Shown here: piece by piece, positions 2,222-64,000 of the stretch | Position numbering within the stretch: position 1 is the first letter of the stretch | How the letters are laid out: each line of letters begins with the position of its first letter | Assembly: GCA_016291085.1 (NCBI GenBank) | Contig: JAEEVW010000001.1 | Span: 64,094-128,093, forward strand | Source of the DNA: Prevotella sp. | GTDB lineage: Bacteria > Bacteroidota > Bacteroidia > Bacteroidales > Bacteroidaceae | Length of the DNA: 64,000 bases | Direction of reading: 5' to 3' | The notes under the pieces: model-generated | What the model was told of the DNA's origin: nothing | What the model saw: only the letters and a program-made list of their open reading frames with translations | Database searches by the model: none | Program-made: the position numbers and the translations under genes

Positions 2222-4354
2222 ATGAGTAGTTTTAACAATGATAAGGTGATGCCTCGCTATATGATGATTGCAGTGTTGCTGACAATCATCGGAATTGCTG
2301 TAATAGGTAAGGCCCTCTATATCATGACTGCTAAGAAGCAGTACTGGACGGAGGTGGCTGACCGTCTGAAGCGCGACAGCGTCAGCGTGAAGCCTAACCG
2401 AGGCAATATCCTCAGTTGCGACGGACAGTTGATGGCCACTTCTATTCCGGAATACAAGATTTTCATTGATTTCCAGGCTGCCGCTTTCGCAAAGGATGAC
2501 TCGTTGTGGTTGGACAAGGTCGATTCGTTGTGCGACGGGTTGCATAGGATTTTCCCCAAGAAGAGTGCCGCAGAGTTTAAGCATGACTTGGAAGAAGGTC
2601 GTCACAAAATCAATAAAGATGGTAGCAGAGGTTCGCGTTGGTGGAACATCTGGCCCCGTCGTATTGACTATAATACCTTTGTAGAGGTCAGTGAGTTACC
2701 CTTCCTGAATATGCCCCGCTACAAGAGCGGATTCACCTATGAGACCTATAATTCGCGCCGTCGTCCGTTCGGTTCATTAGCTTTACGTACCATCGGTGGT
2801 TTGTATGGCGCCAAGGATTCGGCCTATTATGGTCTGGAGCTCTCGAACGACTCTATACTGCGTGGCGTCCCTGGCATCACTGGTCGTCGTAAGGTGTTAA
2901 ATAAATATATGAACATCCCCGTGACGTTGCCTGTTGACGGCTGCGATATTGTGACGACCATCGATGTAAATATGCAGGACCTGGCGGAGCGCTCTCTGTT
3001 AGACATGCTGAGAAGGCCTGAGGTTCATGGCGAGATGGGTGTGGCCATCCTGATGGAAGTGACAACAGGCGATATTAAAGCTATTGTCAATATGATGCGT
3101 ACGGAGAACGATCAATATGTTGAAGCCGTCAACTCTGCCATCAGCTATCGTTGCGAGCCGGGTTCGGTGTTTAAAACCGCCTCTATTTTGGTGGCTCTAG
3201 ATGATGGTGTGTTGGGCAAAAATCCACAAGATACCAGTTACGTTATTCATACCGGTGGTGGCGTCATGCCAATGTATGGTCGTGAGATGAAAGACCACAA
3301 CTGGCGTCGTGGTGGCTATGGAGATATCAATGTGGCACGTACGCTGGAGGTCAGTTCGAATATCGGTGTGAGCCATGTGATAGACAAGTTCTACCATAGC
3401 GAGGCAGAACGATATGTCAAAGGACTTTACCGTGTAGGCATTGGTGAAGACTTGAAGTTGCAAAACATTCTTCCGGGTTATCGTCCCCCACTCATTCGTA
3501 TGCCTAAACGTAAGAAGAACGGACGCTATGATGACAATTGGTATGCCACCACGTTGCCTTGGATGTCGATAGGTTATGAGACTCAGATTGCACCCATCAA
3601 TACGGTAACGTTCTATAATGCGATCGCTAATAATGGTAAGATGATGCGTCCCCGTTTTGTCAAGAAGATAGTGAAAAACGGTGAGACAGTCAAAGAGTTT
3701 GAACCAGAGGTCATCAAGGAGCGCATTGCTCGTCCGGAGGCCCTTAAGACATTGCAGACCATTTTGGAACATGTGGTGAGCCAAGGTCTGGGACGTAAGG
3801 CTGGTTCTCCGCTGTTTAAGGTTGCTGGAAAGACAGGTACCGCCCAGGTATCGCAGGGTAAGTTTGGTTACAAGAGTGGTGTGGTGCAATACTGGCTCTC
3901 GTTTGCAGGTTATTTCCCTGCAGACAATCCCCGCTACACGTGTATCGTATGTATTAAGAAGTCCGGTCTGCCTGCTTCGGGTGGTGGCATGAGTGGTGTC
4001 GTGTTCCATCATATTGCTGAAGGCGTGATGGCCCGTCACCTGAAGATGAGTGTGGACGATGCCCATGACGAAAACTCTGTTGTGATACCTGACGTAAAAA
4101 ATGGTGATGCTACATCGGCTAATTACATATTGGGTGAGTTAGGCGTTAATAACCGCGTGAGCCAATCGGCCAAGGTGTATGGCGAGAATGTCACGCCAGA
4201 TGTGACAGGTATGGGAGCCAGGGATGCTGTCTACTTGTTGGAGAGCCGAGGACTGAAGGTCAAGGTGCATGGCCGCGGAAAGGTGAAGTCACAGAGCTAT
4301 TCTGCCGGTAAGGCCATTGTTAAGGGTAGTGAGTGTGTGTTGGTGATGAATTAA
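2222..4354 (+). CDS. ftsI: Class B PBP / septal transpeptidase with C-terminal PASTA
   Basis: EPGSVFK (SxxK), SSN, KTGTAQ; N-terminal TM; ATG at 2222 preferred to GTG 2201, which lies in the repeat. Confidence 0.93.
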   Translation: MSSFNNDKVMPRYMMIAVLLTIIGIAVIGKALYIMTAKKQYWTEVADRLKRDSVSVKPNRGNILSCDGQLMATSIPEYKIFIDFQAAAFAKDDSLWLDKVDSLCDGLHRIFPKKSAAEFKHDLEEGRHKINKDGSRGSRWWNIWPRRIDYNTFVEVSELPFLNMPRYKSGFTYETYNSRRRPFGSLALRTIGGLYGAKDSAYYGLELSNDSILRGVPGITGRRKVLNKYMNIPVTLPVDGCDIVTTIDVNMQDLAERSLLDMLRRPEVHGEMGVAILMEVTTGDIKAIVNMMRTENDQYVEAVNSAISYRCEPGSVFKTASILVALDDGVLGKNPQDTSYVIHTGGGVMPMYGREMKDHNWRRGGYGDINVARTLEVSSNIGVSHVIDKFYHSEAERYVKGLYRVGIGEDLKLQNILPGYRPPLIRMPKRKKNGRYDDNWYATTLPWMSIGYETQIAPINTVTFYNAIANNGKMMRPRFVKKIVKNGETVKEFEPEVIKERIARPEALKTLQTILEHVVSQGLGRKAGSPLFKVAGKTGTAQVSQGKFGYKSGVVQYWLSFAGYFPADNPRYTCIVCIKKSGLPASGGGMSGVVFHHIAEGVMARHLKMSVDDAHDENSVVIPDVKNGDATSANYILGELGVNNRVSQSAKVYGENVTPDVTGMGARDAVYLLESRGLKVKVHGRGKVKSQSYSAGKAIVKGSECVLVMN

Positions 4355-9804: not shown

Positions 9805-10920
9805 ATGAACGACGAATTAAGAGTAATAATCAGTGGTGGCGGCACGGGTGGACACATCTTCCCTGCCGTGTCGATTGCCAATGCCATCAAGGCAATGCAC
9901 CCTGATGCCAAAATATTGTTTGTAGGAGCGCTGGGACGTATGGAGATGCAGCGCGTGCCAGCCGCAGGCTACGAAATCAAAGGCCTGCCTATTCAGGGTT
10001 TCGACCGTAAGAACCTGTTGAAGAACGTGAAGGTGCTCTATAAGATTTGGAAGAGCCAGCGTATGGCGAAGAATATCATCAAGGAGTTCTGTCCGCAGGT
10101 TGCTGTTGGGGTGGGTGGCTATGCCAGTGGTCCGACACTGAACAAGGCTGCAGCGATGGGTATTCCCTGCCTCATTCAAGAGCAAAACTCCTATGCAGGA
10201 GTCACCAATAAGCTGTTGGCTAAGAAAGCTGCCAAGATTTGTGTGGCTTACGAAGGCATGGAGCGCTTCTTTCCGGCAGATAAAATCCTGTTGACTGGCA
10301 ATCCCGTCCGTCAGCAATTGCTGGAGAATACCCAGACCAAGGCAGAGGCTCTTCGTTCCTTTGGTTTGGATGCATCGAAGAAGACCATCCTTATTGTGGG
10401 AGGCAGTCTTGGAGCCCGCACGGTCAACGAGAGTGTTTTGAAACATCTCGATGCCATCCGTCAGAGCGATGTCCAGTTCATCTGGCAGACAGGAAAGTAC
10501 TATCATGGTCAGATTACGGAGCAGCTGGCCAAGGAACCGAAAGTTGACAACCTTGTTGTGACCGATTTCATCAGTGACATGGGTGCTGCTTATAAGGCTG
10601 CAGACTTGGTGGTCAGCCGTGCAGGAGCAGGCTCTATTAGCGAGTTCTGCCTGTTGGGAAAACCTGTGATTCTGGTACCGTCACCGAATGTGGCAGAAGA
10701 CCATCAGACCAAGAACGCTCTTGCTTTGGTGAACAAGAATGCGGCCCTTTATGTCAAGGATGTTGAGGCTCCGGCTCTGCTTATCCCGATGGCTATCGAT
10801 ACCGTTCAGGACGATGCGAAATTGAAGAGCCTTAGTGAGAACATCTTGAAGATGGCCTTACCCGCTTCAGCGGAAATCATTGCCAAGGAAGTGGTCACCC
10901 TCGCCAATCAACAACGTTAA
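9805..10920 (+). CDS. murG: Lipid II GlcNAc transferase
   Basis: SGGGTGGHIFP, GGYAS, EQNS, GNPVR, GGSLGA, SRAGA; start refined to MNDELR. Confidence 0.98.
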   Translation: MNDELRVIISGGGTGGHIFPAVSIANAIKAMHPDAKILFVGALGRMEMQRVPAAGYEIKGLPIQGFDRKNLLKNVKVLYKIWKSQRMAKNIIKEFCPQVAVGVGGYASGPTLNKAAAMGIPCLIQEQNSYAGVTNKLLAKKAAKICVAYEGMERFFPADKILLTGNPVRQQLLENTQTKAEALRSFGLDASKKTILIVGGSLGARTVNESVLKHLDAIRQSDVQFIWQTGKYYHGQITEQLAKEPKVDNLVVTDFISDMGAAYKAADLVVSRAGAGSISEFCLLGKPVILVPSPNVAEDHQTKNALALVNKNAALYVKDVEAPALLIPMAIDTVQDDAKLKSLSENILKMALPASAEIIAKEVVTLANQQR

Positions 10921-54891: not shown

Positions 54892-57324
54892 ATGAACGTA
54901 ATTACAAAGACCATTCAATTGCCCGATGGAAGAACCATCACAATTGAGACCGGGAAAGTGGCAAAGCAGGCCGATGGCAGTGTGATGCTCCGCATGAACA
55001 ACACTGTGCTGCTGGCTACTGTTTGTGCCGCAAAAGATGCAGTTCCCGGAACAGATTTCATGCCTCTGCAGGTAGACTACAGAGAGCAGTATGCCGCTGC
55101 AGGACGTTTCCCCGGTGGCTTCACCAAGCGCGAGGGTAAAGCCTCGGACAACGAGATTCTGACCAGTCGTCTGGTCGACCGTGTGCTCCGTCCCCTGTTC
55201 CCCTCCAATTATCACGCAGAAGTTTTTGTCAACGTAATGCTGTTCAGTGCCGATGGTGTTGACCAGCCCGATGCATTGGCAGGTTTTGCTGCATCAGCCG
55301 CGTTGGCATGTTCAGATATCCCCTTCGAGTGCCCCATCAGTGAGGTTCGCGTGGCTCGCGTCAATGGCGAGTACGTCATCGATCCTACCTTCGAGCAGAT
55401 GAAGGAGGCCGACATGGATATCATGGTCGGTGCCTCTGCCGAGAACATCATGATGGTGGAAGGTGAGATGAAGGAAGTCAGTGAGCAGGATCTGCTCGGT
55501 GCCCTGAAGGCTGCTATGGACGCTATCAAGCCCATGTGCGAGTTGCAGGTTGAACTGAGCAAGGAACTGGGCAAGGATGTGAAGCGCGAGTACGACCACG
55601 AGATCAACGACGAGGCACTTCGCGAACGCATGAACAAGGAGCTCTATCAGCCCGCCTACGACATCACTAAGCAGGCTCTCGAGAAGCACGCCCGTGCTGA
55701 GGCCTTCGAGAAGATTTTGGCCGACTTCAAGGAGAAATTCTTCGCAGAGCGCAAAGCTGCCGCTGAGGCAGCAGCCGCCACTGGTTCTCCTGCGGGTGAT
55801 GCCGTCGAGATCTCCGACGACGACTACGAGGCCATGATGGACCGCTACTACCACGATGTAGAGCGCGACGCCATGCGCCGTTGCATCCTCGACGAGGGCA
55901 TCCGTCTCGATGGTCGTAAGACCACCGATATCCGTCCCATCTGGTGCGAGGTTTCTCCCCTGCCCATGCCTCACGGAAGTTCTATCTTCACCCGTGGTGA
56001 GACGCAGTCGCTGACCACCGTGACGCTGGGTACCAAGCTCGACGAGAAGCTCGTCGACGATGTGCTCGACAAGAGCTATCAGCGCTTCCTGCTGCACTAC
56101 AACTTCCCCCCGTTCTGCACGGGTGAGGCTAAGGCACAGCGTGGCGTAGGTCGTCGTGAGATTGGTCACGGACATCTCGCATGGCGTGGTCTGAAGGAGA
56201 TGATTCCTGCCGACTTCCCCTACACCGTTCGTGTCGTCAGCCAGATCATGGAGTCTAACGGTTCTTCCAGTATGGCTACCGTCTGTGCTGGTACGCTGGC
56301 TCTGATGGACGCTGGTGTTCCCATGAAGAAGCCTGTTTCAGGTATCGCTATGGGTCTGATCAAGAATCCTGGTGAAGACAAGTACGCTGTTCTGAGCGAC
56401 ATCCTTGGCGACGAGGACCACTTGGGCGATATGGACTTCAAGACCACCGGTACGAAGGATGGTCTGACCGCTACCCAGATGGATATCAAGTGCGACGGTC
56501 TGTCGTTCGACATTCTCGAGAAGGCACTGATGCAGGCTAAGGCTGGTCGTGAGCACATCTTGAAGTGCATCACCGATACCATCGCCGAGCCACGTCCTGA
56601 GCTGAAGCCCCACGTTCCTCGTATCGAGGCCTTCGAGATTCCGAAGGAGTTCATTGGTGCTGTCATTGGCCCGGGCGGAAAAATCATCCAGCAAATGCAG
56701 GAAGACACCGGTGCTACCATCACCATCGACGAGGAAGACGGCGTTGGCAAGATTCAGGTCAGCGGTCCTAACAAGGAGTCAATCGACGCTGCTATCGCCA
56801 AGATTCGTGCTATCGTGGCTATCCCCGAGGTGGGTGAGGTTTACGAGGGTACTGTTCGTAGCATCATGCCTTACGGATGCTTCGTGGAGTTCATGCCTGG
56901 CAAGGATGGTCTGCTCCACATCTCTGAGATCGACTGGAAGCGTCTCGAGACTGTCGAGGAGGCTGGCATCAAGGAGGGTGACAAGATCACCGTCAAGCTG
57001 CTCGAGATTGATCCGAAGACAGGTAAGTTCAAGCTCTCTCACCGTGTGCTCATCGAGAAGCCCGAGGGCTATCAGGAGCGTCCTGCCCGTGAACGTGGCG
57101 AGCGCCGTGAGCGTCCTGATCGTGGCGAGCGTCGCGATCGTGGCGAACGTCGTGATCGTGGTGATCGTGGTGATCACAATAAAGAACGGAATGGCGAACG
57201 AAGTGAGCGTCGTCCCCGTCCTGAGCGTGGCGATCGTCCCCGTCCCGAGCGCAACGAGGAATACCACGAGCCCACCAACGAGCCCAAGGACTTCACCGAC
57301 GAACTCGACAAGATGGACTTTTAA
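54892..57324 (+). CDS. pnp: Polyribonucleotide nucleotidyltransferase
   Basis: [33 protein letters not shown] and S1 domains. Confidence 0.99.
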
Positions 57325-57431: not shown

Positions 57432-57950
57432 ATGGAAACAGACAGAATCCGACTTCGCCCGTGGAGCGAAAACGACAAAGAAGCACTTTTCAAGTATGCT
57501 TCTGACCCCGATGTGGGGCCTGGTGCCGGATGGTCACCCCATCAGAGTGTGGACGAAAGTCTCGACATTATCCGCACCCATTTCAGCAACGACCACACCT
57601 GGGCCATCGAACTGAAATCCACCGGTGAAGCCATTGGCGCTATGGGCTATATGCTTTCTGGCGAGAGCAATATCAGCATAGGCGAGAACGATGCCGAGGT
57701 GGGCTATTGGGTCGCCAAGCCCTATTGGAATCAAGGCATTTGCACTGAGGCACTCCGCTTGCTCGTCGACTACTGTGCCAAGCTGAAGACCATACAGAGC
57801 CTCTGGGGCGACTATTTTGTCGACAACCCAGCCTCGGCCCGAGTCATGGAGAAGTGCGGCTTCCGCGAAACGGGCACAACAAGCTATTGCTCCCACCTCT
57901 ATGGCGGAAGCAATCGTCCTGTGAAAATCTTGAAATTGGAATTGAAGTAA
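57432..57950 (+). CDS. RimJ/RimL-type GNAT acetyltransferase
   Basis: RLRPW, EVGYWVAKPYWNQGICTEA, NPASARVMEKCGF. Confidence 0.9.
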   Translation: METDRIRLRPWSENDKEALFKYASDPDVGPGAGWSPHQSVDESLDIIRTHFSNDHTWAIELKSTGEAIGAMGYMLSGESNISIGENDAEVGYWVAKPYWNQGICTEALRLLVDYCAKLKTIQSLWGDYFVDNPASARVMEKCGFRETGTTSYCSHLYGGSNRPVKILKLELK

Positions 57951-57956
57951 TCCCAA

Positions 57957-58017
57957 AGAGGGGGTGACCTTACTCGAAGGTCTAATCTATCACAATACCC
58001 CTCTCTGTTTCCCTGTT
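57957..58017. terminator. Hairpin between convergent GNAT and hicB
   Basis: AGAGGGGGT...ACCCCTCTCT with inner GACCT/AGGTC. Confidence 0.5.
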
Positions 58018-58429
58018 ACTTGATGCTAAGCAATGCCTGTCCTATAGCGTGGATACCATCAAGTATTTTTTGTCTTTGCTTGGCGCTGGGGCGCTTGAAG
58101 CCATTGGCATAATTGCTCAGAAGACGTTCATTAATTCCTGTAGCACGTGCAATAGCAGCAATCGTTGTCATACCTTCTAAACTCTGAAGCAGCGACGCGG
58201 TATCTGTTAAGCACCATTTAAATTCATAGTCGCCATCGACCAACCACTGAGGAACTTCGTCACCATCCTCAATCATTCCCTGGATATGAAACTCGAGCGA
58301 TTCTTTTACTTCCTTCTTTAGCTTGGAGTATGTCTTTGCGGTGACCAACACAACTCCAGGGACATTCCCACCTAATGTAGCGGCAAAATTCTTATTGCAC
58401 CATTCTACTTCAACTTTAATTTTTTGCAT
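58016..58429 (-). CDS. hicB: HicB-family antitoxin with C-terminal HTH
   Basis: MQKIKVEVEW..NFAA..VPG..TAKT..LKKEVKESLEFHI; IAAIARATGINERLLSNYANGFKRP. Confidence 0.88.
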   Translation of the reverse strand: MQKIKVEVEWCNKNFAATLGGNVPGVVLVTAKTYSKLKKEVKESLEFHIQGMIEDGDEVPQWLVDGDYEFKWCLTDTASLLQSLEGMTTIAAIARATGINERLLSNYANGFKRPSAKQRQKILDGIHAIGQALLSIK

Positions 58430-58459
58430 TACATTCGGCTCTTTTGTTATTTCCGGGTG

Positions 58460-58510
58460 CAAAGGTAGTAAAAATAATACTTATCTCCAAACTTTTTGAG
58501 TATTATTTTT
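58460..58510 (-). promoter_or_regulatory. hicB promoter with inverted-repeat operator
   Basis: TACCTTTG box (58460-67, minus); AAAAATAATACT-N17-AGTATTATTTTT. Confidence 0.65.
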
Positions 58511-58532
58511 AATACTTTTATTATTTTTCTAC

Positions 58533-58580
58533 AAAAATGGGCGAAAATAGGGGGACACCCCCTAAAATCGCCCATAGATC
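58533..58580 (-). terminator. Intrinsic terminator after hicA-2
   Basis: ATGGGCGA..TAGGGGG/CCCCCTA..TCGCCCAT with minus-strand U-tract. Confidence 0.8.
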
Positions 58581-58600
58581 AACAGCAATATAATATTTCG

Positions 58601-58807
58601 TTACCTTCTAGGAAATTTAATTCCTGCTTGTGACTCAATGGAACGGAGTAAGCATACTGGGACGTCATCATTCATTTTATGACCACTTACAGTCACCAAT
58701 CCAGGCTTTGTAGAGTGTCTATATTGACGGTGACTACCTCTTTGTCTTACTAAATACCATCCATCCTTCTCGAGGATACGAATCACTTCACGAACGTTAT
58801 AAACCAT
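58601..58807 (-). CDS. hicA: HicA-family mRNA interferase (copy 2)
   Basis: REVIRILEKDGWYLVRQRGSHRQYRHSTKPGLVTV; start refined to MVYNV. Confidence 0.93.
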   Translation of the reverse strand: MVYNVREVIRILEKDGWYLVRQRGSHRQYRHSTKPGLVTVSGHKMNDDVPVCLLRSIESQAGIKFPRR

Positions 58808-58996
58808 ACAAGAAACACTAAATAAAGGGTTGGACAAATTGTGAATTCTCCTATTGGATGCATCCTCCTATTATGCGTTTTGGACTAGGAAATCCGTAAG
58901 AAATAATTTCATAATTTACTCTTTTCTTTAATGTTTAAATTTTTTTTAATGCTTTTTTTTTAAAATATTCGCATTTCCGTATGGTATTGATGGTCT

Positions 58997-59025
58997 TAAT
59001 CGCTATTAATCCAAGTGCAAAGATA
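58997..59025 (-). promoter_or_regulatory. hicA-2 promoter with conserved +1 motif
   Basis: CAAAGATA box 59018-25; TAATCGCTATTAATC 58997-59011. Confidence 0.7.
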
Positions 59026-59117
59026 CAGTTTAATAATCAATAATCCAAGACTTTTTAAATAATTAACTTTTAGAACACATTCAGTTCTGGAATAGAATGA
59101 GGAAAGCTGAAATGGTG

Positions 59118-59164
59118 AAAAAGTGGGCGAAGTAGGGTAGACCCATGCACTTGCCCACTGATCG
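59118..59164 (-). terminator. Intrinsic terminator after hicA-1
   Basis: AGTGGGC..GGGT/ACCC..GCCCACT with U-tract; homologous to 58533-58580. Confidence 0.8.
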
Positions 59165-59174
59165 ATAGCGATAA

Positions 59175-59426
59175 TCAAACAACAATGTCACGAAAACGTA
59201 AGCCGGTATTATTTTGGATGTTTGCGATAATTCCCCGAGGGAGCTCATGCGACAATTTTCCAGCAACAGTAATCACATGTGGATTACCTGCTTTATGAAA
59301 TTGACGATGATCGCCACCCCCCATAGGAGCCATTATCCAACCATTTTGCTCTAAAGCCCAAATGATTTCAGACACCCTAAACACCTTCTTTTGTTTTCTC
59401 CCTTTTTGTTTTCTTTTGTTTGCCAT
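59175..59426 (-). CDS. hicA: HicA-family mRNA interferase (copy 1) with basic N-terminal extension
   Basis: SEIIWALEQNGW..GGGDHRQFHK..VITVAG..ELPRGIIANI. Confidence 0.85.
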   Translation of the reverse strand: MANKRKQKGRKQKKVFRVSEIIWALEQNGWIMAPMGGGDHRQFHKAGNPHVITVAGKLSHELPRGIIANIQNNTGLRFRDIVV

Positions 59427-59513: not shown

Positions 59514-59615
59514 TATGTTTTTCTCCTTTCTACCTAAAAACAATGAAAAAAATTTGTGTGTATTTGTTTTTTTTTCTATTTTTGCACTTAGAAAGCAATT
59601 TAAATCCTAAACTAT

Positions 59616-62600
59616 ATGTCACATATTTCATCCATCTTAGAGCCAGAGTACGCTGCAATATTAAAGGCTCGTTTCTGCAAACAGTATATGCCTAGTTTGA
59701 AAGAGTTTTTATCGGATTTTGATATTTCTGAAACGCTCACCGATGATAAACAGGCCTGTAATTCTTTAAAAATGCACTTCCTATTGGATAAGTATGACGA
59801 TATTAAGCAGAAAGATGAGGGAAAAAGAAAAAAACAGATCAAAAAATTGAAAGAGAATTGTAAGTGGCATATTAAAAATGTTACAGACGAAGAATTGTTA
59901 TTAGCAATCGAAGAATTTTTCTTTATTACAGAGAAGACAGATAAAATTAATGAGGCCAAGAATAACAATAGCCAGGTTCTTGATGAAAAGAATACTATAA
60001 GCGGAAAAAGAAACAAGTTATTAGAAAATTTGTTCAAATATGGATTTAAAGGTGACGAGCAGTCCAGTATTGCAGATACAACAATGTTTGCTATTGCTGA
60101 GTATTTTGGAATAAAAAAAGAAATACAAGATTTAGGAAAGTTATTTGAAACATATGAATGTATTGCATATGCTTTGAAAGAAAAGAATCCTGAAGAATCT
60201 GGAGTCTGGCAGTTCCATAATGCACTGAGGTTATTTAGTTGTGTTAGAAATGGTGTAGTACATCCTGATTTTCAATATGATGGTGAAAAATTAACTCGTT
60301 ATCATGAGTTTATAATTTTTACTTATATTGGATATGTTTTGGCTTGTCGTAGAATATGGAAGGCCTTTAATTATGAGCCAATATTGTCAGCAATGCTTAA
60401 ATATAACAAAGAAAAGGATGAGATTGAAAGAGCAAAAACACTAACGTTATTTGAATTTCCGAAAGAATCAAAGAAGGATTTTAGCTTGCCCGCAGAAACA
60501 GTTGAAATAAGAATAGAAAAAGGACATCGAAATATCAAAATAAACAGTAAAGATGAAGATGGAAAGGTTATCAAAGTTAATAGGTTTAATGATGATGACA
60601 ATCATTATTTCATAAAAGTCTGCAAATATAAAAAATTCACAATTCATATTACGTGTGACGATAGCACTGTGCCTCTTGTTATCGAAGACGAGCTGGATTA
60701 CAATTCTTGGTTTTTTTGTTACAAAGTTATTCTGCCAGATAATTGGACTCCGTCATCTATAGAGTATGAAAATCTGAGCAAAGGAACACAGAAATTGATA
60801 TCCGTAGTTGCTAATTCGGTTAATCAAACCATTCGCGAAGAAATTAAGAATGCCATACAACATGAACTAGCTGCACTTCAGCCACTTTTCCAACTAGCAA
60901 AAGATGGTACCAAAGATCAAGAAGAATTAGATAACTCTTTAAATGAGATCTTGGTTCAGTTAAAAAATGTCGGTAATACGACTGATGATACAAAGAATCA
61001 GATAGAACAAATTCATCTACAAATTGGTGGTTTGCATAAAAGATTTTTGGGTAGGCTCGATGAGTTTTCTGACAGTTTCTATGATTTAAAAGAGAAGAAT
61101 AAGATTATCGTTGAGAAAGTAGATACCCTAATTGAATTTGCTAAGCAAAACAGGAAGTTTATATGGACTGCTACCTCTGTTATAGGACTGGGCTTTGTTT
61201 GTTGTATCTTATTCAATTTTGATTCTTTGCAATCTCCTATCTTATCATCCTTCAAGATTCTTGTCATTATAATTCTTATAGTCAGTTCCTATTGCCTTTA
61301 TAGGCAATCTAAACCGCTAAGATTTATTAAAGGTAAATTAACGCGTTTTATTGCTTTGGGGCTTATCGTGCTATTTTCTTGGTTTGGTTTAAAATGCGCA
61401 ATTGATACGGGGAGGGAATTCTTTGTCAATCATTGTTATGATTTTGCCGAAAAAGATCCTGAAAGGAATCAGGAAGTTGCCAATCTCATGGAATCAATAT
61501 TAGAATCTAATCCTAATGATGAAGAGACGAGAATGAAATTGACAAGATACTATCTTGACTATGCTAATGATGCAGAAAAAGCATTCATAATAGCAAGCCC
61601 CATGCTTGACGATATTGAAAAACATCCAAGGGGCATTTTGGCAATTATTGAAGCTCTATATAGCCAAGGGAAGGACTTTTGGAAGGTTCGCGATCTTCTT
61701 GAGAGTTATAAGAAAACTAACGACTGTGATTCAAATGTTGTTAATCGGATAGAAGGAATTATGAATGTTTGGGGACAAGGTCAGACAAGTAATATTAATA
61801 AGGGTTTTAGTTTACTAAGATTGTCTGCTGATAATGGTGATATAGAGGCCCAATATTACCTTGGTTATGCCCTATCACATGAGATGACTGATTGGGAAAA
61901 ATCAAAATTGTCAGGACATGTAGAAACTTCTGAATTTGACCTGATTACTAGTATTGAATATCTACGCAAAGCTGCCATATACAAACCAAAAGCAGCATTG
62001 GAACTTGGGCGTTTGTATGCAGATCTAAATGTTAGAGATAGTGCTGAGGTATATCTAAATAAGGCAAGATTACATTCAAGTGGTGAATTATACAAGGAAT
62101 CTTTGTATAGATTAGGATTACTATACGAAGGTACGGATGAAGGAAATCAATTCATAAAGAAAGCTGCTTTTTTGGACTATGTGCCAGCTATACTATATAA
62201 GGCCAATAAAGAAGACGATCATAAGTCTGCTATAGAGTTGTATAATAGTCTAGATGGCTATCATGGATATAGATATATTTTACCCATAGCATTTCATCAT
62301 TTGGCATTAGGACAAAGAAATAAAGCATTGAAGGCTTTACAGGATGGAAGACCTTTTGGAAAATTCGATATGAACTTCATCGTTGGAATAGATTCTATTA
62401 TGCATTCATATGATGATGCCCAACAAGCAAAAAGCCAAGCAGATTCTTTGTTAAAAGAACACTGGAATCTTTTAGCAAAAAAAGATTCTACAGCCGCAAT
62501 GAAATATATAATGGAGTCTGCGAAACAAGGTTGTCTTTATGCCGAAATGATTTGTGTTTTCAGAGATGCAGAGCGTAATGGAACTTCAGATCGTCAAGCA

Positions 62601-63101
62601 TTTAGGCTAACAGAAATAGGTGAAGAAATTCCTTTTGCCTATGTTCTTCTTTCTTATCTTGCTCATAAAGAGGAACGTTTTATGTCTTTGGGGTTCCCCT
62701 TTTCTGATTATTTTGCGAATCAAGCAATTGGGAAAGGACATCCTGCTGGGAGACTGATGCTTGATGTCCCCTCCTATTATCTTGATTATATTCAAAAATC
62801 AATAAGTAATAAAGGTTTTGCTGCATATCAATATAATATAAGACAAAGAGCACTGCGCATAAACAAAAACAAACGTTTGAATATAATATATAGTTATAAA
62901 GCTGAGAAAACTATAACTGATAATAAATTAGAAGCTAAGAGTTATAACTTCTGGGATTATGTCAGTAGGGCCAACAATGTTGATTTACATGAACTAAATA
63001 TGGATCCCATTGTATTTCCAGAAATATCAGATATCGAACTGCTAAATGAATTTAGTGACAAAATCATAGACAATCAGCAAGAAACACCTTTTATAAAATA
63101 A
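59616..63101 (+). CDS. 1161-aa membrane protein: HEPN-like RxxxxH domain, beta domain, coiled coil, 3 TM, Sel1/TPR repeats
   Basis: RNGVVH at aa 211-216; heptad region ~385-512; TMs ~515-535, 542-562, 578-596; Sel1-like SADNGDIEAQYYLG, KAALELGRLY, ESAKQGCLYA; promoter TATTTTTG 59577-84. Confidence 0.75.
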   Translation: MSHISSILEPEYAAILKARFCKQYMPSLKEFLSDFDISETLTDDKQACNSLKMHFLLDKYDDIKQKDEGKRKKQIKKLKENCKWHIKNVTDEELLLAIEEFFFITEKTDKINEAKNNNSQVLDEKNTISGKRNKLLENLFKYGFKGDEQSSIADTTMFAIAEYFGIKKEIQDLGKLFETYECIAYALKEKNPEESGVWQFHNALRLFSCVRNGVVHPDFQYDGEKLTRYHEFIIFTYIGYVLACRRIWKAFNYEPILSAMLKYNKEKDEIERAKTLTLFEFPKESKKDFSLPAETVEIRIEKGHRNIKINSKDEDGKVIKVNRFNDDDNHYFIKVCKYKKFTIHITCDDSTVPLVIEDELDYNSWFFCYKVILPDNWTPSSIEYENLSKGTQKLISVVANSVNQTIREEIKNAIQHELAALQPLFQLAKDGTKDQEELDNSLNEILVQLKNVGNTTDDTKNQIEQIHLQIGGLHKRFLGRLDEFSDSFYDLKEKNKIIVEKVDTLIEFAKQNRKFIWTATSVIGLGFVCCILFNFDSLQSPILSSFKILVIIILIVSSYCLYRQSKPLRFIKGKLTRFIALGLIVLFSWFGLKCAIDTGREFFVNHCYDFAEKDPERNQEVANLMESILESNPNDEETRMKLTRYYLDYANDAEKAFIIASPMLDDIEKHPRGILAIIEALYSQGKDFWKVRDLLESYKKTNDCDSNVVNRIEGIMNVWGQGQTSNINKGFSLLRLSADNGDIEAQYYLGYALSHEMTDWEKSKLSGHVETSEFDLITSIEYLRKAAIYKPKAALELGRLYADLNVRDSAEVYLNKARLHSSGELYKESLYRLGLLYEGTDEGNQFIKKAAFLDYVPAILYKANKEDDHKSAIELYNSLDGYHGYRYILPIAFHHLALGQRNKALKALQDGRPFGKFDMNFIVGIDSIMHSYDDAQQAKSQADSLLKEHWNLLAKKDSTAAMKYIMESAKQGCLYAEMICVFRDAERNGTSDRQAFRLTEIGEEIPFAYVLLSYLAHKEERFMSLGFPFSDYFANQAIGKGHPAGRLMLDVPSYYLDYIQKSISNKGFAAYQYNIRQRALRINKNKRLNIIYSYKAEKTITDNKLEAKSYNFWDYVSRANNVDLHELNMDPIVFPEISDIELLNEFSDKIIDNQQETPFIK

Positions 63102-63134: not shown

Positions 63135-63662
63135 ATGAAAAAAAGTGTAATCGTGTTAGTTGTATTAATAGCAATGATGGCTTGTGGCACAAAGAGTGAA
63201 AATGCTTCTCAAAAGCAGAGTGAAGAAGAATTACGATCAGCTATAGTTGGTTCATGGTATGTGGTGACAGGAGAGAATAGGTCCATCACCGTTGATAGTA
63301 CAGAAATAGCGCAAGCGAATCAAAGTGAATTTAAGGGCCTAGGAATGACTATGAGGAGAGAATTCTATAAAGATGGTCGATACTTTGAACGTGAGATTAC
63401 TAAAGTAACTGCCTATGAAGATACGGCAGGACTGCTGTTATACTCTATTAAAGGGACATGGGAAATTAGTGGAGACACATTAATATTAACTTCAAGAGTG
63501 GAAGATGTTGTGCATCCTGAACATACAAGAATTACGGCGAAAAGTGGTGCAATAAGAGCAAAGGAGATTATTAAAAGGATCTCTAATGATAGTCTAATCA
63601 TTCAGGATAATGTCAAAGATAAGAATGGCGTAGTTCAGGATTTAATTATGTTAAAAGAATAG
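63135..63662 (+). CDS. Lipoprotein, lipocalin-like fold candidate
   Basis: Lipobox AMMAC; IVGSW motif; GTWEISGDTL. Confidence 0.75.
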   Translation: MKKSVIVLVVLIAMMACGTKSENASQKQSEEELRSAIVGSWYVVTGENRSITVDSTEIAQANQSEFKGLGMTMRREFYKDGRYFEREITKVTAYEDTAGLLLYSIKGTWEISGDTLILTSRVEDVVHPEHTRITAKSGAIRAKEIIKRISNDSLIIQDNVKDKNGVVQDLIMLKE

Positions 63663-63696: not shown

Positions 63697-64000
63697 ATGC
63701 TAACAGCTGTTGACTGTTGTTTTGAATACACCTTGCGGATGCCTCAAAATGAACAAGAGGCGTTCGCAACGTTCTGTGCATTGAATGTGATCAGGGCTGG
63801 GATGAAGGAGGGTGTTGTTTCGAAGGAGAAAGGCTTTGGTATTACGAAGTCGTACGTTTCAAAATTGGCCACATTCATTGCTGAACACCCAGAGTTGAAG
63901 CTGGTTGATAATATGTACCTTGACAACAGCATCAAGCCAAACTGCGTCTTTTTCATCTGCATGGGGGTGCAGTTCAGTTATCATAGCGTAGCCCTCAATG
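63697..64000 (+). CDS. Hypothetical protein, truncated by the window end
   Basis: Open frame from ATG 63697 (or 63739): MLTAVDCC..MPQNEQEAFATFCALNVIRAGMKEG..GVQFSYHSVALN. Confidence 0.6.
   Translation, partial: MLTAVDCCFEYTLRMPQNEQEAFATFCALNVIRAGMKEGVVSKEKGFGITKSYVSKLATFIAEHPELKLVDNMYLDNSIKPNCVFFICMGVQFSYHSVALN

Follow-up and report, generated by a model that had tools for sequence, protein, structure and literature searches.

A hypervariable membrane protein with an HEPN-like motif and a Sel1-repeat solenoid beside hicBA in ruminant-gut Prevotella-type Bacteroidales

The 64,000-nucleotide (nt) stretch of Prevotella sp. DNA analysed here, from contig JAEEVW010000001.1 (hereafter the window), carries near its right end a long gene, BIG, which an initial annotation made from the letters alone had put forward as a candidate new defence protein: a cytoplasmic HEPN-like RNase linked across the membrane to a periplasmic Sel1/TPR sensor. 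AlphaFold2 models built from alignments of the BIG family, together with hydropathy, leave the anatomy first proposed for the protein right overall, with its boundaries slightly moved. The gene and its parts are laid out as follows.

59577 to 59584, plus strand: TATTTTTG, a promoter element of the form TAnnTTTG read from the sequence 32 nt 5' of the BIG ATG, which we take to be the Bacteroidetes-type -7 consensus
59616 to 63101, plus strand: BIG (P0001), an uninterrupted open reading frame whose translation is a multidomain inner-membrane protein of 1161 residues
59616 to 60380, plus strand: all-alpha N-terminal domain, residues 1-255 (predicted local distance difference test score, pLDDT, of ~90)
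60246 to 60263, plus strand: R211-N212-G-V-V-H216, the RNxxxH motif, invariant in alignments A1, A2 and A3
60381 to 60758, plus strand: immunoglobulin (Ig)-like beta-sandwich, residues 256-381 (AlphaFold2 strands; weak Foldseek matches to filamin/Ig/PEGA-type sandwiches)
60780 to 61109, plus strand: helical, coiled-coil-like linker or stalk, residues 389-498 (AlphaFold2 helices of lower confidence)
61158 to 61391, plus strand: three transmembrane (TM) helices, residues 515-533, 542-560 and 574-592 (hydropathy scan, loop charges across the family)
61458 to 62972, plus strand: Sel1/TPR-like alpha-solenoid, residues 615-1119, predicted to be periplasmic (AlphaFold2, Pfam across the family, Foldseek)

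BIG is a previously undescribed family of ruminant-gut Prevotella-type Bacteroidales, and scans of the protein against Pfam, NCBIfam and PADLOC gave nothing above cut-off. A word-indexed search returned eight relatives at 34-99% identity, a profile search of proteins with alignment A2 recovered the identical eight proteins only, and an exhaustive HMMER search with residues 1-520 as the query yielded 41 representative clusters, most of them 1100-1390 residues long. The relatives come from ruminant-gut metagenomes and metagenome-assembled genomes; two BIG-bearing records, both from deer, are labelled Prevotella sp. and uncultured Bacteroidaceae. The model of residues 1-385 reached a pLDDT of 87.5 and a predicted TM-score (pTM) of 0.89, and the full-length model a pLDDT of 79.5. 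Across the family the HEPN-like N-domain and the Sel1 region are the best conserved, and the sandwich, the stalk and the TM segments the most variable.

The N-terminal domain is modelled as helices 12-33, 54-62, 68-81, 91-115, 128-139, 154-163, 173-190, 192-199, 201-214 and 223-250, and we propose that its HEPN-like core lies at residues ~86-255. The motif on which the RNase proposal was built, LFSCVRNGVVHP, is found where it had been claimed, from R211 to H216 (nt 60246-60263), and is flanked by helices as described: R211 and N212 belong to the C-terminal end of helix 201-214, H216 to the loop 215-222, and the long hydrophobic helix 223-250 comes next. The initial annotation had cautioned that so short a motif could occur by chance. 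For Rx4H alone this is correct, since BIG contains two copies (R211 and R299) where about one is expected from 46 arginines and 26 histidines in 1161 residues, and the copy at R299 shows no conservation in the family. The conservation of R211, N212 and H216, however, exceeds chance. None of the three varies in the full-length alignment of 30 sequences (mean column identity 27%) or, taken together, in about 40 relatives, they are among the 18 invariant columns of 385 in a 28-sequence N-terminal alignment (31% mean column identity), and RNxxxH is present in all members that span the region, save for one RNLVH variant. Conservation of R and H in homologues, which had been named as a check, thus extends to the polar N and holds across a divergent family, and it is this conservation, rather than mere occurrence, that gives the motif its significance.

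In the published definition of HEPN domains the motif straddles a helix end and the loop that leads to the next helix (PMC3710099). R211-N212-x3-H216 has the Rx4-6H form with a polar residue (N, D or H) directly after the R, and at the level of secondary structure the AlphaFold2 model places it as in that definition. Three independent features of the N-domain, namely the spacing, the polar N and the helix-end/loop position, agree with the definition. Tha-1, an experimentally validated defence HEPN, has the same pattern (R265NSIMH270; PMC11087260). When every family member was scanned with Pfam at E <= 10, single members gave sub-threshold matches to three different HEPN families: DUF4145, the best Pfam match of one member (0.022, or 0.0055 on the cut-out core), Cas_Csm6_HEPN (0.022) and HEPN_Apea (0.57). 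Comparison by hhalign with a DUF4145 alignment assembled from Bacteroidales genomes lined up the lRNxxxH of BIG with GNxavH in DUF4145 (P 0.012-0.022). We consider the N-domain HEPN-like and moderately likely to be a true HEPN RNase; BIG is probably a membrane-tethered HEPN-like effector.

The beta-rich domain that follows is present as had been noted, with a span of residues 256-381 instead of ~290-375 in the model. It shares eight matching stretches with P0027, a protein of tandem Big_7 Ig domains. As Big_7 domains mostly occur outside the cell, the predicted cytoplasmic position of the BIG sandwich, between the HEPN-like domain and the stalk, is unusual for a fold of this type. The coiled coil called at ~385-512 is a helical, coiled-coil-like region made of helices 389-404, 408-430, 435-454, 459-478 and 482-498, with its boundaries at 389-498 and with lower model confidence.

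On the three TM helices hydropathy and AlphaFold2 agree, the model placing them at ~514-531, 541-563 and 574-607, and Pfam gave matches to the membrane domain DUF2207_C somewhere within the proteins of six relatives. The protein begins with MSHISSILEPEYAAILKARF and lacks a hydrophobic leader there, in keeping with the absence of a signal peptide first noted, and about 510 residues stand ahead of TM1. In family members, lysines and arginines typically number three to six in the 15-residue stretch that precedes TM1 and likewise in the TM2-TM3 loop, against zero to two in the TM1-TM2 loop; the number of TM helices in the region is three, or one (P0019, P0026), and never two or four. Because this number is odd and the charges follow the positive-inside pattern, the HEPN-like part and the repeats are predicted to lie on opposite sides of the membrane. 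By the positive-inside rule the N-terminus would be inside and the C-terminus outside, which agrees with the earlier argument that an odd number of TM helices puts the repeats outside the cytoplasm.

The repeats form a tandem alpha/alpha solenoid in the model and match the corresponding profiles, which confirms their Sel1/TPR character over ~505 residues, somewhat less than the ~560 first assigned. BIG itself scores 17.7 bits against the Sel1 profile, where the Pfam cut-off is 30.7, and over the family Sel1 was matched in 12 of 30 members (best 6.9e-7), TPR_27 in 11 of 30 and TPR_8 in 10 of 30. With the full-length model as the query, Foldseek returned the Sel1-repeat structures 6ok3 (2.8e-5), 4bwr, 8sxq, 6deh, 1ouv and SEL1L, with LceB, LpnE and HcpC among them.

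The neighbours of BIG, and the part of the locus that varies between genomes, are listed here.

57432 to 57950, plus strand: a 172-residue GNAT (Acetyltransf_3, 105 bits), member of the conserved frame
58016 to 58462, minus strand: hicB-like antitoxin gene with a helix-turn-helix (weak HicB_lk_antitox, 14 bits, and HTH_3 matches)
58601 to 58837, minus strand: hicA1 (HicA_toxin, 75 bits, cut-off 27)
59175 to 59426, minus strand: hicA2, the divergent neighbour of BIG (HicA_toxin, 34.7 bits, cut-off 27)
63135 to 63662, plus strand: a 175-residue lipocalin-like lipoprotein, 33 nt 3' of BIG (lipobox ...AMMAC; Lipocalin_4 E 0.001, below cut-off)
63697 to 64000, plus strand, ending at ~64173 past the window: N158, a 158-residue cytoplasmic protein (open reading frame L008 6791-7267)
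59522 to 64000 and on to window-equivalent ~64158, no strand: the variable cassette of promoter, BIG, lipoprotein gene and N158, from comparison with L009

The loci examined comprise 18 with a full-length BIG and several partial ones, and in about 17 of them the frame of GNAT, hicB, hicA, BIG and N158 is kept. One or two copies of hicA and then hicB, divergent from BIG, stand at every locus that has upstream sequence; a HicA domain is thus paired with an adjacent HicB that is conserved in position and sequence across loci. The claim of strongly AT-rich DNA adjoining hicAB was borne out: the GC fraction is 0.53-0.57 upstream (pnp/GNAT region) and 0.31-0.35 across BIG, with hicA2, hicA1 and hicB immediately upstream on the minus strand, and it is back at ~0.55 roughly 1 kb past the window end. 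BIG thus occupies an islet of low GC, 0.32 against 0.54.

Within this frame BIG is hypervariable. Between L009 and this genome the DNA is 97% identical from pnp to window position 59521 and again from L008 position 7253, just before the N158 stop codon; between these two flanks the BIG allele is 31% identical and the N158 homologue 28% identical (hhalign probability 97%). The TAnnTTTG element, to the right of 59521, falls within the cassette. Across loci, identity is 79-91% for hicB, 73-87% for GNAT, mostly 48-84% for N158 and 26-63%, by region, for BIG; in the loci where hicB keeps its 79-91%, BIG is at 26-58%. Moreover, the N- and C-regions of BIG do not diverge together (48% and 28% identity in L005, 51% and 66% in L001, 63% and 49% in L003), and the sequence comparison indicates that they have different histories and reassort between alleles. 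Since the frame genes are conserved, BIG is divergent and the histories of its two regions differ, BIG is a swappable mosaic gene in a conserved frame. The L009-type allele is also found in L023, with a different hicA2.

A 99% relative, P0002 (the allele of L039-L041, from three sequencing runs), is identical to BIG over codons 1-752 and differs at 49 codons from 753 on (window 61872-63101), 31 of the changes being synonymous and 18 non-synonymous. Because both classes of change cluster from codon 753 on, they point to a recombination breakpoint inside BIG, and positive selection between these 99% alleles was rejected on the same clustering. We also considered, and rejected, N158 as a cognate antitoxin that diversifies with BIG: where BIG identity falls to 26-30%, that of N158 still stands at 84%, though the L009 copy of N158 is at 28%.

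The remaining features of the frame vary in arrangement. Orthologues of the lipocalin-like lipoprotein follow BIG in L001, L003, L022 and L039-41, and other signal-peptide or lipoprotein genes do so in L010, L032 and L035. In about 10 loci BIG is followed by N158, for which Pfam gave no match. No intrinsic terminator interrupts the plus-strand run of BIG, the lipoprotein gene and N158. N158 is fused to a RimJ/RimL-type GNAT as a 332-residue protein in L001:13980-14978, L005:8185-9183 and L026:3859-4857, and GNAT is standalone, upstream of hicB, in this window, L009 and L042-45. The five frame genes thus recur circularly permuted and in differing chromosomal surroundings, and the permuted order of N158 and GNAT would fit a history involving a circular intermediate or a tandem array.

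Window positions 58016-59426 hold one hicB and two hicA genes that are just 32% identical to each other, and the BIG-adjacent hicA is 48-59% conserved across loci, against 79-91% for hicB. In P0047, a distant relative of BIG, a C-terminal extension (~1270-1387) weakly resembles the downstream lipocalin-like lipoprotein; we did not use this possible fusion as evidence for a shared compartment, the BLAST match covering 31 residues at E 0.01, with no Pfam match. The polynucleotide phosphorylase (PNPase) gene at 54892-57324 encodes a C-terminal, low-complexity R/E/D-rich tail of ~90 residues (window 57100-57324).

Two further sites place BIG relatives near genes of conflict systems or near a related motif.

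11094 to 15098 of L035, plus strand: the L035 locus, with neighbours at 2786-4030 and 9883-10894; the available sequence stops within cas13b
1866 to 5597 of L001 and 903 to 4634 of L003, minus strand: a 1243-residue soluble protein with RNASVH at residue 180, then a BIG-like hydrophobic helix

In L035 a BIG relative of 1304 residues is followed by a gene for a 238-residue lipoprotein, a further hicA and then directly Cas13b (NCBIfam NF038190, E 2.7e-139; also called Cas13b by PADLOC). On the 5' side of hicB-hicA lie a gene for a 276-residue lipoprotein and, before that, a CRISPR-type WYL regulator, and a WYL gene is near BIG in L001 and L003 as well. The 1243-residue protein, encoded a few kb from the hicBA-BIG cassette, had no match in Pfam, NCBIfam or PADLOC; hhalign aligned it with the BIG N-domain at P 0.0017, and it possibly represents a second version of the HEPN-like module, one without a membrane part.

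Based on these observations and by analogy with better-known proteins, we give about an even chance to the reading that BIG tethers an HEPN-like RNase to the membrane and that its Sel1 solenoid controls this activity from the periplasm, perhaps via the lipoprotein, in the service of abortive infection or another conflict response. The N-terminal ~500 residues, comprising the helical RNxxxH domain, the Ig-like sandwich and the helical stalk, would be cytoplasmic, and the RNxxxH domain would most likely be a divergent HEPN-type, metal-independent RNase. The periplasmic Sel1/TPR solenoid could bind a protein or an envelope ligand, possibly the downstream lipocalin-like lipoprotein. The trigger would come from the periplasm, where phage injection machinery, damage to the envelope or the loss of a partner, for instance, would rearrange the stalk and the TM helices, so that two HEPN-like domains would meet as an active dimer, as other HEPN dimers and Ire1 do, and RNA would be cut. 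Cutting would then stop the growth of the infected or stressed cell in the style of abortive infection. The initial annotation had likewise proposed that envelope sensing would drive dimerisation of the coiled coil and thereby RNase activation. We infer RNase activity, activation by dimerization and a periplasmic signal in this way, and a defence role on the part of BIG is plausible. The swapping and reshuffling of BIG within a conserved frame are as expected for an arms-race gene. In a stronger version, BIG would define a class of its own among the immune receptors of Bacteroidales, one that spans the envelope in a single chain: its Sel1 solenoid (possibly with the lipoprotein) would detect phage entry or envelope breach and directly switch on the HEPN RNase, and sensor and effector domains would be exchanged among alleles at a fixed hotspot flanked by hicAB. 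We put this version forward only tentatively.

Several results weigh against this reading. With the model of residues 1-385 as the query, the 50 best Foldseek matches in PDB and BFVD included no HEPN structure; they were mostly beta-sandwiches at E >= 0.003, and none reached E <= 0.001. Pfam gave no match above cut-off for P0001, curated HEPN profiles included; profile searches of PDB sequences with the BIG family found nothing HEPN; and the hhalign probability against DUF4145 was just 2-4%, a similarity at the level of the motif. As neither fold nor profile searches gave a match above threshold, "HEPN" here means a motif, with its polar N, and its secondary-structure placement. The defence-island association that had been proposed stands in part as well. 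HicAB is constant, Cas13b and WYL occur at one relative and WYL at two others; but Cas13b adjacency is seen in one locus only, PADLOC-DB v2 gave no match for BIG, the lipoprotein or N158, searches of plasmids and phages found no BIG copies, and the right flank in this genome consists of housekeeping genes (SpoIIE-type phosphatase, AAA ATPase, GH97 and MatE). Finally, N158 shows no co-variation with BIG, and no cognate inhibitor is evident.

The searches for HEPN also bear on a different view of the N-domain, namely that it is not a nuclease, that RNxxxH has a binding or structural role, and that BIG is an envelope scaffold or receptor whose diversity is driven by phages or bacteriocins using its periplasmic part. 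The lack of support at the level of fold or curated profile would be as expected, as would an N-domain of ~10 helices, which exceeds the minimal HEPN, and a Sel1 region conserved as much as the N-domain. However, in a family that is otherwise 27-31% identical, the invariance of R-N-x3-H where a helix runs into a loop marks a catalytic or ligand site, the HEPN consensus is matched in spacing, in the polar residue after R and in secondary-structure position, and a protein of the inner membrane is not exposed to adsorbing phages; we regard this view as unlikely.

The remaining alternatives keep the RNase and give it other work. If BIG supplied the toxin of an addiction module, or of one resembling toxin-antitoxin pairs, with its RNase neutralised by N158, GNAT or HicB and Sel1 serving only to anchor or regulate it, the cassette would persist and spread selfishly, and the recurrence of the five-gene frame GNAT-hicB-hicA-BIG-N158 in different chromosomal contexts, with N158 and GNAT either fused or, elsewhere, separate and permuted in order, would be readily understood; a precedent for an HEPN toxin that a modifying enzyme neutralises is HEPN-MNT (as cited in PMC11087260). 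Yet N158, GNAT and HicB are conserved (64-91%) while BIG varies (26-58%), the opposite of a co-evolving toxin-antidote pair, the plasmid and phage searches found no copies, and a conserved periplasmic solenoid of ~500 residues is hard to explain as a mere anchor, all of which makes such a module rather improbable. A housekeeping role comes last in our estimation and has a low probability. BIG would then be an Ire1-like sensor of envelope or periplasm stress that cleaves specific transcripts and has no part in phage defence. The arrangement of a sensor outside, a TM segment and a HEPN inside is that of Ire1, the chromosomal surroundings in this genome are of housekeeping type, and the PADLOC, plasmid and phage searches were negative. 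An identity of 26-31% between genomes with 97% flanks would nevertheless be unexpected of such a sensor, as would a mosaic, low-GC, swappable cassette, and the constant HicAB and the Cas13b and WYL neighbours point to conflict systems.

The reading of BIG as a membrane-tethered HEPN-like RNase invites comparison with systems already described. Csx28 of type VI-B CRISPR is a membrane-tethered HEPN in anti-phage defence, and the adjacency of one BIG relative to Cas13b is a parallel to it. The HEPN-TM proteins of phage-inducible chromosomal islands are likewise membrane-anchored HEPNs in anti-phage defence (PMC12948488, PMC11087260). Both are small and without an extracytoplasmic sensor, whereas BIG, compared here by description, adds a periplasmic Sel1 solenoid and an Ig-like domain. 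With the HEPN effectors of the abortive-infection (Abi) type, namely Tha-1 of S. aureus prophages (PMC11087260), ApeA, AbiD/F and DUF4145 (PF13643), BIG shares RNxxxH at a helix end and loop, an all-alpha domain and a conflict context, but it differs in the order of an N-terminal HEPN-like domain, an Ig-like domain, a stalk, three TM helices and a solenoid of ~500 residues, and it is a separate family, confined to Bacteroidales of the ruminant gut. The initial annotation recognised no named system with this architecture. That holds for the BIG family and for its distinct domain order, but the combination of HEPN, TM and Sel1 was already listed in 2013 for DUF4145, whose HEPN is fused to Sel1, zinc ribbon, TM and SH3 segments in Firmicutes, and AbiU2 occurs in operons with Sel1-repeat genes (PMC3710099). 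What sets BIG apart is the unannotated family, that domain order, the fixed hicBA-flanked hotspot and the high polymorphism.

For the periplasmic half, the fold of residues 615-1119 is that of Sel1-repeat proteins such as those of Oxalobacter (6ok3) and E. coli (c5321, 4bwr), LpnE and LceB of Legionella and HcpC of Helicobacter (Foldseek E 2.8e-5 to 8e-4), which, unlike BIG, are soluble and have neither a membrane anchor nor a cytoplasmic domain. Control of anti-phage defence across the membrane by a periplasmic TPR-containing domain is known from the transmembrane protein DdvA of Myxococcus xanthus (PMC11506125). DdvA, however, is an anti-sigma factor that releases an extracytoplasmic function sigma factor by proteolysis, whereas BIG carries its own putative effector and has no sigma factor linked to it in this window.

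Ire1, the sensor of the eukaryotic unfolded-protein response, combines a far-side sensor domain, a TM segment and a cytoplasmic RNase of the HEPN class (KEN), and it is activated by oligomerisation. BIG has its domains in the opposite order, another sensor fold and a sequence unrelated to that of Ire1, and the likeness is one of analogy only. The KEN domain is listed as HEPN (PMC3710099); the kinase domain that marks the KEN proteins Ire1 and RNase L is missing from BIG, with none found in Pfam and no kinase-like alpha/beta domain in the AlphaFold2 layout.

An N-domain RNase under periplasmic control would mean that one polypeptide senses infection or envelope damage outside the cytoplasm and carries out the response inside it, and if the trans-envelope receptor reading is true, BIG would be a bacterial counterpart of the logic of Ire1. 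Few systems are known or proposed to work from the envelope (DdvA, Zorya and Kiwa are examples), and BIG would then be added to them; it would also be a defence candidate from rumen Prevotella, in which phage defence has, to our knowledge, been little studied. Should the N-domain not be an RNase, the family would still be a conserved, unannotated membrane protein with a cytoplasmic domain of ~250 residues for which our Foldseek search found no structural relative in PDB. Furthermore, the fixed hotspot, with its divergent mosaic alleles between hicBA and N158/GNAT, amounts to a natural experiment on the recombination of sensor and effector.

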